Virus record (IMG/VR): IMGVR_UViG_2563366883_000015 | DNA: 19,651 bases | Direction: 5' to 3' (one strand) | Origin: a virus | Taxonomy: Duplodnaviria > Heunggongvirae > Uroviricota > Caudoviricetes | Shown: positions 16,446 to 19,651 of the stretch, piece after piece | Numbering within the stretch: position 1 is the first letter of the stretch | Layout: every line of letters begins with the position of its first letter | Made by a program: the position numbers and the translations under genes | The notes under the pieces: generated by a model | The model's database searches: none | What the model was told of the DNA's origin: nothing | The model's input: only the letters and a program-made list of their open reading frames with translations

Positions 16446-17270
16446 TCAGGCGGTGAAAGTACCAATAAAGGTTTCTACTTTGCTGTCTTTGAATTTCTCA
16501 ACAAGCAGATCACGAAATTCGTTAGCCATTTCTTCCTGCACCGCTTCCAGCTGAATAATGCGCAGAACCAGTACAGGACGATCGCCAGTGATAATGCTGA
16601 GGCGTAATTTAAACGGACGTTCTTTCAGACCTTCAAACGGAACGCATTTAAATTCAAATGCCACTGGCATAATGTCTTTGGTCTTCGCTTCGACAGACTC
16701 CATCAGGGAGCGTTTGCCGCTGAAGTCATTATCTTCAAAATCAGCGGTCTGGTTTGCTTCAATCGTGATTTTACGGACTGCCGCAGCCGCTTTTGTTGCT
16801 TGAATGGCGTCACCATTAGCATCAAAGCCCACAAGGTAGTCGGCCCAGTCTTCGATCCATTCTGCCAGTGACTTCTGGGAGTTACGCTCGCCGTTAACAG
16901 ACAACAGAGCAGAGAACGGTGCTGTCTTTTTCAGTTTGAGAGTGGCAGTGTTATCTGCGTGACCTGGTTCATCAATAGTACCCAGGTTAAGCACACTGAC
17001 GGCTCGCATATTATCGGCATCGATAAAGCAGCGGGTGCCTTCATCTGCAAGATCTTTAGAATAACGGGTAAAGTCATCGATGCTGGCAGTGGAAAGCGCA
17101 CCACGGAAACGGAAGCGATTTAAATTAAATTTTTCCAGATCATGAATGCGGAAATTCTCAGGCAATGCCACAGCATCGGCACCAATCTTACTGATAATTT
17201 CATTAACACCCTGAGCAGAAATAAGGGCATGGATTTGATTAATTGCGGTTGCGTCTAAGTTCTGAGACAT
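16446..17270 (-). CDS. yfdQ: YfdQ-like prophage protein (DUF2303-like)
   Basis: 274 aa [30 protein letters not shown]... with GTGAGGA RBS; ordered yfdP-yfdQ-yfdR as in the CPS-53 cluster. Confidence 0.75.
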
Positions 17271-17335
17271 AATAAGTCCTCACTATATAAAAATATTCAG
17301 TGATGAGAGAAATAATCAGTTTATTAAAAACGATA

Positions 17336-17698
17336 TTAATGACCTGCTGCGCGGAGTTTTCCGTCAGGTTCACCGGCAAGAGTCAGTAATTGTCCCTGGT
17401 CTTCCTGCAGAATAGTCAGGCGACCACCGCGATTGACATACATCGGCGTTTCGGTGGTGTCTTCTTCGGAAATTTTCCCGCGGTTAGTTGGGCGAACATA
17501 TGAGAGTTTGTGTTTGATTTTCACACGGTTCTCATCAAACGGTTCGATTTCCAGATTGAGTGAGACCTTCCCTTTGGTTTTCGTGTTCATCACACCGGAA
17601 GCGACCTCACTGAGAACTGCGCCGATTTTGGTTTCAAATACGCCGCCGTCCAGCTCCCCGATAAATGCCTGCACATCAGTACTGCGTTCGCTAGCCAT
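17336..17698 (-). CDS. yfdP: YfdP-like prophage protein
   Basis: 120 aa from ATG 17698 (MASERSTDVQAFIGELDGGVFETKIG...) with GAGGAG 7 nt upstream. The ORF track extends upstream to 17863 into GC-rich non-coding sequence. Confidence 0.6.
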   Translation of the reverse strand: MASERSTDVQAFIGELDGGVFETKIGAVLSEVASGVMNTKTKGKVSLNLEIEPFDENRVKIKHKLSYVRPTNRGKISEEDTTETPMYVNRGGRLTILQEDQGQLLTLAGEPDGKLRAAGH

Positions 17699-17739
17699 TT
17701 TGCTGCTCCTCATCATATCGACCCTGCAAGGTCGGTTGG

Positions 17740-18100
17740 TTTCTCCACAAAACAGAGAAGAACACCTGCGGTGGCAGCCGCCCGGATGGATTGGGTTATG
17801 AGCCCGTCGTCCGGTGATGCTCTTCTCTGTTTTGCAAAAAAGGACGGTACCAGCCGGAAGCAAGGGTACAAACTGGTACCGCCAGGACTACACACAGCAT
17901 AAAGTTGTGGTGCCGGGTGCCTCCCGGTGCCTGGCGAAGGTTGCACACCAGGCGGGTGGGTATCCACAGAAGGTCGACTGTCAGCCTCAACCTTAACCCG
18001 CGTGCGCTGAGCCGCATTCACCACAACGCTAAGGATTCTCTCTGGTTGAAAATACTTAGCTGTTATGTGCCTGCTTTTAGCCACATCAGGCGAGGTGGAC
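17740..18100. other. GC-rich, hairpin-dense non-coding block (candidate structured RNA or regulatory leader)
   Basis: No ORF with an RBS or sensible composition. 14-bp perfect stem CAAAACAGAGAAGA (17748-17761) / TCTTCTCTGTTTTG (17821-17834); 9-bp stem CGGTACCAG (17845-17853) / CTGGTACCG (17873-17881); further short stems. Confidence 0.35.
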
Positions 18101-18168
18101 CTGGTTATTCCCCAACAACAAGGATTCGGTTAATCTGGATATCCCCAACAACAATAAGAGTATTCAAT
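18101..18168 (+). repeat. Two tandem 34-bp imperfect direct repeats (core CTGGWTAT(T)CCCCAACAACAA) ending at the start of the downstream ORF
   Basis: R1 18101-18134 CTGGTTATTCCCCAACAACAAGGATTCGGTTAAT; R2 18135-18168 CTGGATATCCCCAACAACAATAAGAGTATTCAAT. An AGGATTC...CTGG motif also occurs at 18032-18047. Confidence 0.6.
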
Positions 18169-18684
18169 GTGATCGCTGAATTAACGGCAGCAATGACGGC
18201 TATTCGTGAAACAGCCCAGATTGCAAAACTAATGAACGAGGCAAAAACTCAAGCTGAAGTAAATGCGGCTATTGGTGAGCTGAACTCAAAGCTTGCGTCT
18301 ATTCAGCGCGAATGCGTGTCTCTCGTTGAACTGGTGGGCTCTTATCAAGAAATAAATGCTTCTCTCAAAGCTAAAATTGCAGAATTCGAAAACTTTGAGG
18401 CTCAGACGGAAGGCTATATCCTTAACCAACTTGAGTCGGGTACTTTTGTATACTCGAAGGAGGTAATCGTGAACGGTGGCAGCATAACCATGCATCTTTG
18501 CCCAAAATGTTTTGGACAAAAGATAGTATCGATACTTCAACCATTCCCGGTTAGCGAAGATGAGCTTTTTCATAAAAGCAGGTGCCTCCACTGTGAAAAT
18601 AAGTTTCTGATGAATAAAAATCCGGATTACGTATCGCCTCCATCCATTGAGGAGTTGTCCAGAAAACTTAACGGCAATCTGTAG
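18169..18684 (+). CDS. Hypothetical protein with N-terminal coiled-coil-like region and C-terminal CxxC...CxHC zinc-ribbon-like motif
   Basis: Frame open from GTG 18169 (AAGAG upstream) or ATG 18193 (MTAIRETAQIAKLMNEAKTQAEV...); stop TAG 18682-18684. Motif HLCPKCFGQK...(21 aa)...CLHCENKF. Convergent with cI. No family recognised. Confidence 0.5.
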   Translation: MIAELTAAMTAIRETAQIAKLMNEAKTQAEVNAAIGELNSKLASIQRECVSLVELVGSYQEINASLKAKIAEFENFEAQTEGYILNQLESGTFVYSKEVIVNGGSITMHLCPKCFGQKIVSILQPFPVSEDELFHKSRCLHCENKFLMNKNPDYVSPPSIEELSRKLNGNL

Positions 18685-18698
18685 ATTACTACTGTTGT

Positions 18699-18711
18699 GG
18701 ATATCCAGATT
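18699..18711. repeat. Right-hand inverted copy (GGATATCCAGATT) of a 13-nt sequence found in repeat R2 (AATCTGGATATCC, 18132-18144)
   Basis: Perfect 13/13 reverse-complement match, with similar ACAACA flank. The two sites bracket the ORF from ~25 nt before its start to 15 nt after its stop. Confidence 0.6.
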
Positions 18712-18722
18712 GCTAAAGAGCT

Positions 18723-18748
18723 AAGCGTCCTGTAGGGCGCTTTTTTGT
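18723..18748 (+). terminator. Rho-independent terminator for the zinc-ribbon ORF
   Basis: AAGCGTCC-TGTA-GGGCGCTT stem (one G-U pair) followed by TTTTTTG on the plus strand. Confidence 0.55.
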
Positions 18749-18912
18749 TGCTAACGAATCATCCTGGACTTCATATGCCCCAGGCGGCTACTTCGTGGGC
18801 GTCCTGCCTGTTCGTTTTTGACATTTACTGACTGCTTACGACACATGCACCGTGTTGCAACCAGATTTTGTTGTAATCCTGTAGTTGGTCTGGAACAAAA
18901 GATAAAATTAAA

Positions 18913-18949
18913 TTGCGAGATATGCAAGTGATATTTGCGAGGTATGCAA
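18913..18949. promoter_or_regulatory. Pair of 15-bp direct repeats TTGCGAGATATGCAA / TTGCGAGGTATGCAA, 22-bp period (operator-like)
   Basis: 14/15 identical copies at 18913-18927 and 18935-18949, each with inverted TTGC/GCAA ends, in the gap between the two convergent terminators downstream of cI. Confidence 0.35.
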
Positions 18950-18960
18950 ATTTATAGGTA

Positions 18961-18983
18961 GTAAAAAGCCACCTTTCGGTGGC
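18961..18983 (-). terminator. Rho-independent terminator downstream of the cI-type repressor gene
   Basis: GCCACC-TTTC-GGTGGC hairpin (18968-18983), followed on the minus strand by a T-tract (plus-strand AAAAA 18963-18967), 20 nt after the repressor stop. Confidence 0.5.
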
Positions 18984-19003
18984 CGATGGATGGGATATTG
19001 AGG

Positions 19004-19651
19004 TTAATTATGTCTCTTAAGGGTTTGCGACTGACTGATTAAGACCTTTCCAAAGACCATGAATCGGTGTTCGTTTTCGCTAGTAATTCCCCATTCACGG
19101 TAAATCTGGTTATCAGAAATCACCAGCAGTTTGTCAGGAATCATTTGAAGTCTTTTAACGTATATTTTGTCATCAAAACCAAAGACATATATACCATCAC
19201 CATCAAACTGATTGATGCTGACATCAACGAAGATGAGATCTCCTGGCTCAATGGTTGGACACATACTGTCCCCACGAACGTTGATAACTTTGATGTGATT
19301 GGCTGGTCGTCCGCCGAACATTGATACAGCATTATCAGTTCTGTATTCGATGGCATGAATCACATCAATGACATCACCGCCCTGGATAAGGCCATTTCCC
19401 GCACTGGCACTGATATCCAGCATTTCAATACGGAACACATCCTTCACCTGCGCAACATCCTCATTATTACTGTTTTTATATACAGTATTACTTTTGTGGG
19501 CAGAGGTAAAGAGATCAGCAATATCAACACCTAAGCTCTTGGCAATATTACTCAGTGTTTGTTCGGTAAATTGTTTTTGCTTACCCGTTTCTAAGCGCGA
19601 GATGTTCGCCGCATCTACTCCTATTGCTTCAGCGAGATCGGCGATTTTCAT
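19004..19651 (-). CDS. CI-type prophage repressor (HTH plus LexA-like S24 autopeptidase domain); N-terminus probably beyond the window edge
   Basis: HTH segment IADLAEAIGVDAANISRLETGK; Ala-Gly cleavage site in SASAGNG; S24 motifs VRGDSMCPTIEPGDLIFVD and YVKRL. The frame reaches the window end, and the HTH appears to lack its first helix. Confidence 0.85.
   Translation of the reverse strand: MKIADLAEAIGVDAANISRLETGKQKQFTEQTLSNIAKSLGVDIADLFTSAHKSNTVYKNSNNEDVAQVKDVFRIEMLDISASAGNGLIQGGDVIDVIHAIEYRTDNAVSMFGGRPANHIKVINVRGDSMCPTIEPGDLIFVDVSINQFDGDGIYVFGFDDKIYVKRLQMIPDKLLVISDNQIYREWGITSENEHRFMVFGKVLISQSQTLKRHN

Follow-up and report, generated by a model that had tools for sequence, protein, structure and literature searches.

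The stretch of DNA analyzed here (hereafter, the window; 19,651 nucleotides (nt), IMG/VR virus record IMGVR_UViG_2563366883_000015) is a lambdoid prophage inserted at a tRNA-Arg gene beside fimZ. The window is 100% identical to the corresponding sequence of Escherichia coli O22:H8 RM10809-3, and the prophage is of the lambdoid SfV/e14/ST64B type. Our subject is a block at positions 17740-18100 that encodes, on the minus strand, a structured non-coding RNA belonging to a divergent branch of the prophage small RNA (sRNA) family STnc100. Read leftward, along the minus strand, the gene order opens with a cI-type repressor gene (19004-19651, plus strand) and the repressor terminator (18984-18967). 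Left of the block lie yfdP, yfdQ, yfdR, a yfdS-like gene, yfdT, a truncated helix-turn-helix (excisionase-like) fragment and intD. An initial annotation of this DNA, made from the letters alone, placed the block upstream of a yfdP-like gene; the annotated yfdP is indeed encoded on the minus strand at 17336-17698 (ribosome-binding site (RBS) GAGGAG at 17711-17706, ATG at 17698), so that the block is the upstream leader of yfdP. The characterization of the block as non-coding, densely structured and located at the head of the early-left genes holds as well.

The block stands out by composition, as initially noted, with a GC fraction of 0.554 compared to 0.461 in the prophage part and 0.468 in the whole window, which corresponds to the 97th percentile among 361-nt windows of the prophage part; within the core at 17904-18028, the GC fraction is 0.64. 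A repeat search of the block recovered all the exact stems of 14, 9 and 7 base pairs (bp) that had been pointed out. The 14-bp exact run sits within a 24-nt inverted repeat (17748-17771/17811-17834), the 9-bp stems are at 17904-17912/18019-18027 and 17845-17853/17873-17881, and the 7-bp stems are at 17937-17943/17988-17994 and 17880-17886/17930-17936. The triple GGTGCC repeat is present too, its copies starting at 17909, 17916 and 17926, and is explained by the P5 hairpin together with the 3' strand of the closing helix (see below), seen from the opposite strand. The GTCGAC sequence described as the center of a palindrome is found at 17973-17978, but the palindrome itself is weak and falls within a lineage-specific hairpin. 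The minus strand is the functional strand of the block. The minus-strand RNA 18060-17830 folds with an energy of -93.4 kcal/mol (z = -3.42 against dinucleotide shuffles, 3 of the 200 being equally good), compared to z = -1.47 for the plus-strand fold of the block, and many cells with G-U pairs would turn into A-C mismatches on the opposite strand.

The conserved STnc100-like core (17904..18027, minus strand) is a closed five-helix RNA of ~125 nt with a pseudoknot. The closing helix P1 (18027-18019/17912-17904) encloses, in this order, the J1/2 linker AAU (18018-16), the P2 hairpin (18015-18000), P3 (17999-96/17957-54), P4 (17953-46/17936-29) and P5 (CCGGG-AGGCA-CCCGG, 17927-13), which abuts P1; the pseudoknot pairs AAGGUUG at 17994-88 with CAACCUU at 17943-37 in the P4 loop (all on the minus strand). 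As read from the sequence, P1 and P5 would stack without a spacer, in the manner of an acceptor/T-arm minihelix. Upstream of the core, an inverted repeat (I2) and the minimum free energy (MFE) fold delineate a 5' hairpin, GCUAAGNAUUUUC...GAAUCCUUAGC (18028..18060, minus strand), which is lineage-specific, lies outside the conserved core and is lacking in the copies from ST64B, phiES15 and P1.

To trace the core, we used a covariance model, R1, built from six diverse copies with a hand-written structure. This model matches the window core with 133.8 bits and detects 148 copies (E<0.01) at 100 loci from many Enterobacterales genera, among them those in e14 (119.9 bits), Qin (71.1 bits), P1, ST64B and phiES15. 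In the R1 alignment of the 148 copies, standard pairs occupy 94.5% of the pair cells compared to 73.0% after shuffling, double-sided changes occur at 27 of the 31 pairs, and the covariation score is 0.516, compared to 0.14 for shuffles (0 of 500 reach the observed value) and 0.03-0.09 for slid partners; because this alignment is fitted to the model, the covariation figures are inflated, although the margin is still large. In a separate test of the pseudoknot, the best helix between the two segments has a mean of 6.0, compared to 4.2 with shuffled loops, and the pairing is retained through ~100 different sequence pairs. The five central pseudoknot pairs also hold in 6/6 sequences of a structure-blind MAFFT alignment, with changes on both sides in three of them; the variants include AAGGCUG/CAGCCUU in phiES15 and UGGUUAU/AUAACCA in P1. 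Among the 35 copies that are free of both search anchors, P1 covaries freely, and GAAU and ACCGGGAGGCACCCGGC are conserved. The comparative alignment proposed earlier as a check on the stems has turned up strong covariation in the core and compensatory changes in the terminator and the hairpins that follow it.

In public annotation, the same sequence is treated as a protein-coding gene or a frameshifted remnant of one. A minus-strand open reading frame (ORF) of 123 amino acids (aa) spans 17713-18084 and is called a 'frameshifted hypothetical protein' by the Prokaryotic Genome Annotation Pipeline in the identical RefSeq genome, E. coli K-12 has an annotated 103-aa YmfH at this place, and phrog_33599 matches the 36 C-terminal residues of the ORF, although this family was probably built from similar ORF calls. 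These points are outweighed by the pattern of variation. When 74 distinct close variants are compared, the frame that stays open longest is not always the same one, and they differ by 1-nt insertions and deletions (indels), such as those at 17996 and 17922; the variable sites are spread over the three codon positions as 5/9/10 in the core, 17/14/14 in the tail and terminator, and 12/14/12 in the second hairpin, that is, with no third-position excess; and the substitutions compensate RNA helices. The middle parts of the window ORF and of K-12 YmfH are read in different frames, and the ST64B, phiES15 and P1 records carry no ORF annotation over the element. Neither the overlapping ORF nor YmfH, YfdP or the product of the plus-strand gene to the right of the block had a match in Pfam, NCBIfam or PADLOC, and PHROGs returned families of unknown function only (phrog_33599, phrog_204 and phrog_1244). 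We accordingly consider a coding origin extremely improbable. The dismissal of the overlapping ORFs as artefacts in the initial annotation agrees with the lack of any coding signal in them, and the degraded gene remnant that it had retained as an alternative is contradicted by the flat codon periodicity, the 1-nt indels and the absence of protein family matches. A YmfH-like protein-coding gene, considered as a candidate in its own right, was rejected given that there is no conserved frame, no codon bias and no Pfam or NCBIfam family. The K-12 e14 ymfH (L002 3576-3887) coincides with the RNA element detected by R1; we conclude that ymfH is an RNA and not a protein gene, and among the papers searched, none was found to state so.

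At the gathering threshold, Rfam detects IS009 and one tRNA in the window and nothing in the block. The Rfam/Infernal scan suggested at the outset nevertheless yielded a full-length match to STnc100 (RF02076; model positions 1-206) at 17834-18057 on the minus strand, albeit below the gathering score (40.3 bits, E 6.4e-7 in a 1.5-kb search). Relatives from the same subfamily score 29-48 bits against this Rfam model; in particular, the SfV-type, ST64B, phiES15, P1/RCS47 and e14 copies reach 29-41 bits over model positions 31-147, that is, the core. The Rfam alignment of STnc100 contains the exact core motif CACCGGGAGGCACCCGGCACCA, and the single model R1 recovers both the window subfamily and copies above the Rfam threshold, picking up canonical STnc100 copies at 40-70 bits. 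The element shares with STnc100 the order of closing helix, GAAU, P2 with the loop U-N-N-G-C and pseudoknot-forming P4, then the invariant P5 ACCGGGAGGCACCCGG stacked on the closing helix, followed by a spacer and a Rho-independent 3' terminator (stem 17883-17843, U6 17841-17836), and it is carried, like STnc100, by Enterobacterales prophages and phages. The differences are that P2 reads GCGGC/GC-CGC in the window where STnc100 has CCCCC/GG-GGG, a change of three compensatory pair swaps, that the core has an extra P3 helix and another pseudoknot sequence, that the tail and terminator are DicF-like, and that the element lies at the head of the early-left operon beside the immunity region rather than at the late-region 'moron' site after Q/stx. 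The block is a divergent subfamily member of the family known as STnc100/EcOnc27/sRNA103/PasD. STnc100 has been described downstream of Q/stx2B in Shiga toxin (Stx) and other lambdoid prophages and was recently tied to PasD. Its representatives (STnc100 = EcOnc27, sRNA103) are bound by Hfq and have been detected by Northern blotting (PMC4104026, PMC7873438).

A BLAST search finds the block in 2836 of the 5426 complete E. coli genomes and in 98 phage records. The copies in SfV, SfII and SfIV are ~98% identical to the block, and a 100% identical element is carried by PhiR49_1, an inducible phage with a Q antiterminator and no annotated N. In Salmonella phage ST64B, the copy lies between the repressor gene and the yfdP homologue; in Cronobacter phage phiES15, immediately before kil; in P1 and RCS47, inside the ban operon, which is under C1 control, and right in front of tciA or of a lipoprotein gene; and in e14 of K-12 (89.5% identity, annotated as ymfH), upstream of xisE-intE. 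The cores fall into three subtypes: the canonical one, with CCCCC in P2, passes the Rfam threshold; the window type, with GCGGC, is at or below it; and the third is that of mEp460 and of the second copies carried by P1-like phages. Copies of the third subtype (L249 2852-2992; L004 1809-1949; L039 6677-6811; L116 9818-9953) have GCGCAGGCUGAUGCGC in P2 and CCGG-AGAUCAGCA-CCGG as P5. A core followed by a terminator is present at the early-left head in SfV-type phages, ST64B, phiES15 and mEp460, in the last case with the different core subtype. In P1, the core (L003 2499-2628 = P1 70075-70204) is on the strand of the ban operon, right before tciA; the P1 record places predicted upl promoters at 70223-70282 on the other strand, which would make the 5' untranslated region of upl antisense to the core.

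Downstream of the core lies a single-stranded tail, UUUAUGCUGUGUGUAGUCCU (17884..17903, minus strand), which is unpaired in both the MFE and the centroid folds and is a candidate seed; its segment UUGCUGUGUGUAGUC is conserved in ST64B and phiES15 despite their differing terminators. The intrinsic terminator that follows (17836..17883, minus strand; stem 17883-17869/17857-17843, U6 17841-17836) includes a 9-bp repeat (I3) and shows compensatory changes among the 74 close variants. It was identified through folding, repeats and Term-seq homology; the automated terminator scan missed it because its loop is longer than 8 nt. The U-tract at 17841 has one U more than in 72 of these 74 variants. Next come a second long hairpin with 24-nt arms flanked by an A-tract and a U-tract (repeat I1; 17748..17834, minus strand), with compensatory pairs at 17825/17757, 17810/17786 and 17820/17762, and a small hairpin just upstream of the yfdP RBS (17717..17736, minus strand), in which the pair 17732/17721 occurs as AU, CG, GU and GC. 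The second hairpin is common to mEp460, cdtI and Stx2c phages, in which BLAST similarity is confined to 17884-17700, and is kept also with a different core subtype: given that mEp460 carries a third-subtype core just upstream (R1 26.8 bits), the layout of core, terminator, hairpin and yfdP has been maintained while the core sequence was replaced.

The tail and terminator resemble DicF (RF00039), encoded in the Qin prophage, in that both combine a short tail with a terminator in an immediate-early prophage operon, and the terminator 5' arm, UGGCGGUAcCAGUUU, shares 14 of its 15 positions with DicF. Qin also has an STnc100-like core next to DicF, at a distance of 17 nt. The seed region is different, however, and the order is core and then tail in the window but DicF and then core in Qin; as a DicF homolog, the sequence scores only 15.7 bits (E 2.8) compared to the gathering score of 48, with the similarity limited to the terminator arm.

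A compact pseudoknotted domain followed by a terminator is also the layout of a riboswitch-like sensor, in which the core would be an aptamer whose folding controls the formation of the downstream terminator. Such a switch could have been built on the exact complementarity between the P4 3' strand, CGCCAGG (17936-17930), and the base of the terminator 5' arm, CCUGGCG (17886-17880), but this pairing is not kept in ST64B and phiES15, and the CGCCAGG/CCUGGCG antiterminator switch was dropped as a candidate on account of this loss. Moreover, many cores have no terminator and are followed by ORFs, tRNAs or another core, and no Rfam riboswitch family matches the element, so we judge a sensor function very unlikely.

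For two K-12 paralogues, in vivo 3' ends have been mapped: Adams et al. (2021; PMC7815308) applied Term-seq to MG1655 without induction, and we checked the coordinates given in their supplementary files 1 and 3 against the sequence. On the sense strand of e14 (minus strand), an end at 1201423 falls within GGCAC|AUAAC, ~38 nt before P1, a second end, at 1201257, follows ...CACCACAACUUUA and is located 4 nt past P1 (P1+4 nt), and a third, at 1201195, coincides with the last U of the terminator (PMC7815308). The source marks 1201423 and 1201257 as not Rho-dependent and, in the passage concerned, shows no Rho call for 1201195 (PMC7815308). The Qin core (L248 3952-4085 = MG1655 1649451-1649584; R1 71.1 bits, Rfam 34.4 bits) starts 17 nt past dicF, ends 25 nt before dicB and has the compensatory P5 CCUGG/CCAGG. 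A 3' end at 1649584 lies 1 nt after P1 of this core (PMC7815308). The e14 and Qin ends show that the RNA is made and the terminator functional, and that two independent copies each yield a core-only species with a defined end. Transferred by homology from e14, the equivalent positions in the window would be 18067, 17900 and 17836, the first of them at GGCAC|AUAAC (18066..18067, minus strand), a predicted upstream processing or 3'-end site; the ends have been observed in the K-12 paralogues, and we infer the same ends for the window strain.

Of the functions envisaged in the initial annotation, that of a trans-acting structured RNA fits best, given the relationship to the STnc100 family and the discrete 3' ends of the K-12 paralogues. 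We think that the element is probably a leader that carries a terminator and gives rise to a stable RNA of the STnc100 type, which has a DicF-like 3' module and most likely acts in trans. The unit would be a leftward, minus-strand non-coding RNA at the start of the early-left operon, made up of the pseudoknotted core, a ~20-nt tail with a strong terminator resembling the 3' module of DicF-type Hfq sRNAs, and two hairpins before the yfdP RBS. Transcripts arriving from the immunity/pL side would mostly end at the terminator (predicted 3' end, 17836), which would shield yfdP...xis-int from read-through and at the same time release the stable RNA. Cleavage or trimming would then yield a core-only species ending ~4 nt past P1 (predicted 17900). 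The released RNA most likely would act in trans through the exposed tail, with Hfq, as supposed for the Hfq-bound relatives. Left of the repressor terminator, at 18913-18955, we read from the letters operator-like repeats of the form TTGCGAG(A/G)TATGCAA (TTGCGAGATATGCAA / TTGCGAGGTATGCAA; strand unassigned), which probably represent oL/pL, so that leftward transcription would enter the element from there; the counterpart of this region in e14 has TTGACA-16-CATAAT after the repressor terminator. The motif GTGGGCGTCCTGCCTGT at 18795-18811 in the window also occurs in the pL region of e14 (L002 2785-2801).

Several observations weigh against this account. Because a sigma-70 scan predicts no promoter in 17200-19100, we can only infer one for the element. 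The match to STnc100 falls short of the gathering score (40.3 vs 47 bits), Hfq binding, by Hfq-CRAC (cross-linking and analysis of cDNA), and detection by Northern blotting are documented for late-region relatives only, and the in vivo ends come from the K-12 paralogues, with the window locus linked to them by homology. A search within the window found no target, the complementarity of the tail being at chance level. A base-pairing sRNA leaves the conservation of the ~125-nt core, with its GAAU and P5 hairpin, unaccounted for and does not explain the tight arrays, the tRNA neighbors or the terminator-less cores before ORFs; nor does the model explain how the terminator is read through for the expression of yfdP-int upon induction.

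The genomic contexts of the family bring in another reading. According to a crude classifier, 64 of the 148 copies lie within ~110 nt of an intrinsic terminator, 10 are directly before an RBS and ORF, 9 are within 40 nt of another core, and 3 are within 40 nt of a tRNA. Tandem arrays of four to six cores, with spacers down to 5-15 nt, are present in Pantoea-like genomes and a Pantoea plasmid (L218 4134-4758 and 5818-5930; L171 946-1992; L202 6397-7021; L212 3233-3604), those in L218 and L171 reaching five or six copies. At two loci (L227 4789-4975, L217 4617-4824), tRNA-Met(CAT) begins 3-6 nt after P1 and is followed by tRNA-Thr, and in the ban operons of P1 and RCS47, cores are mixed with tRNAs. 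The main rival to the leader model, possible although we find it rather doubtful, is that the functional unit is the core and not the tail: a self-contained structured RNA that builds up once processed and binds or mimics something. Its conceivable variants, each of which we likewise entertain only tentatively, are a tRNA-like RNase P/E substrate, a protein decoy, an anti-defence RNA and a self-cleaving or processing element, and the terminator in the window might, with the same reserve, be just one among several ways to end a core.

Such a unit would better account for the arrays, the neighboring tRNA genes and the invariance of the P5/GAAU face, and the closed pseudoknotted fold with GAAU and P5 near-invariant in the 35 anchor-free copies, the narrow spacers of the arrays L218, L171, L202 and L212, the cores ending shortly before tRNA-Met genes in L227 and L217, the 3' ends 1-4 nt past P1 in two K-12 paralogues, and the minihelix-like stacking of P1 on P5 all speak for it. 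So does the report that over-expressed 'ymfH' triggers RcaT, the toxin of retron-Sen2 (bioRxiv 10.1101/2020.06.22.160242), but this result was obtained with an undissected ORF clone; furthermore, 3' ends next to a stable helix may be mere stalling points of exonucleases, and no ribozyme, riboswitch or tRNA-like family of Rfam matches the core. The tandem arrays, the tRNA adjacency and the in vivo 3' ends 1-4 nt past the closing helix are the grounds for a more specific version, which we would put forward as a tentative suggestion at most: rather than ordinary base-pairing sRNA domains, the STnc100 cores of enterobacterial phages could form an autonomous class of pseudoknotted RNAs, excised from operons like a tRNA. 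If so, the P5/GAAU face would engage a conserved host or defence factor, or else the core would be a new processing or self-cleaving element, and the K-12 copies would be ymfH, the trigger of retron-Sen2 when over-expressed, and the dicF-dicB spacer.

The same contexts bear on the cis-acting function proposed in the initial annotation, a nut- or put-like antitermination element. As it had observed, no N-like gene is seen between the repressor and the early-left genes, whether among the ORFs or with Pfam and NCBIfam. In these phages without a visible N gene, the element separates the immunity region from the early-left genes and precedes one or two terminators, and P5, a 5-bp stem with a pentaloop, is of boxB size, as would suit a put-like RNA, or a nut-like one with an unknown protein, that promotes processive antitermination in cis for reading through the following terminators. 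Like putL/putR of HK022, it is a cis-encoded structured RNA a short way downstream of the early promoters of an N-less lambdoid phage, before terminators. However, put is a V-shaped pair of stem-loops of ~70 nt that binds the zinc-binding domain of the RNA polymerase beta' subunit (PMC9378689), whereas the window has a closed five-helix pseudoknot of ~125 nt, and R1 finds no match in HK022 23500-29500, which includes Nun, pL/putL and cI. The comparison with the lambda pL leader (nutL - N - tL1) leads in the same direction. The map position, from the repressor region to the recombination/excision genes, is shared, as is the use of an intrinsic terminator to gate leftward transcription, which is a feature also of the immunity-transcript terminator; but the window has no N gene or N-like ORF by pL, no boxA and no GNRA-like boxB (the P5 loop is AGGCA), and instead has a conserved stand-alone fold before the terminator that occurs elsewhere in phage genomes, too. 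YmfJ and phiES15 gp10, which occupy the same position in relatives, share an N-terminal domain, and neither is Arg-rich. In Qin, the core comes after the DicF terminator, e14 transcripts end at the terminator directly past the core, and neither the tandem arrays nor the neighboring tRNAs are compatible with a dedicated antiterminator. The fold, the HK022 scan, the family contexts and the termination in e14 all go against antitermination, and we regard this function as unlikely.

The terminator-bearing, sRNA-releasing leader that we prefer is not a new kind of element, given that the STnc100 family is known and curated. What is new is the sub-threshold STnc100 subfamily, the covariation-backed pseudoknot, the tie to in vivo ends, the identification of ymfH as an RNA, and the positionally conserved site at the head of the early-left operon, along with those in the P1 ban operon and beside DicF. 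These results correct the annotation of a sequence that is present in about half of the complete E. coli genomes under the names ymfH or 'hypothetical protein' and is an RNA, extend STnc100/PasD, so far described as a late-region 'moron' sRNA, into an RNA module with several subtypes, and provide the family with a pseudoknot supported by covariation and with 3' ends determined in vivo. In lambdoid phages that lack N, the terminator of the element would also act as a gate from the immunity region into yfdP...xis-int, which raises the question of read-through.

The region between the immunity genes and the RNA element contains one more gene, on the plus strand (18169-18684), with a terminator of its own at 18723-18742. 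Its 171-aa product belongs to phrog_1244, of unknown function, has a coiled-coil N-terminus and two CxxC pairs, and has no match in PADLOC. Upstream of this gene, TCCCCAACAACAA occurs twice, exactly, at 18109-18121 and 18142-18154, 33 nt apart. Among the related phages, mEp460 has matches to the C4 antisense RNA and isrK (L249 323-511) beside an antirepressor-type gene, and ST64B has an isrK match at the equivalent place (L005 21-97). At the far end of the window, 98-296 on the minus strand is a full-length match to the Rfam family IS009 (RF02111), with 225.8 bits.

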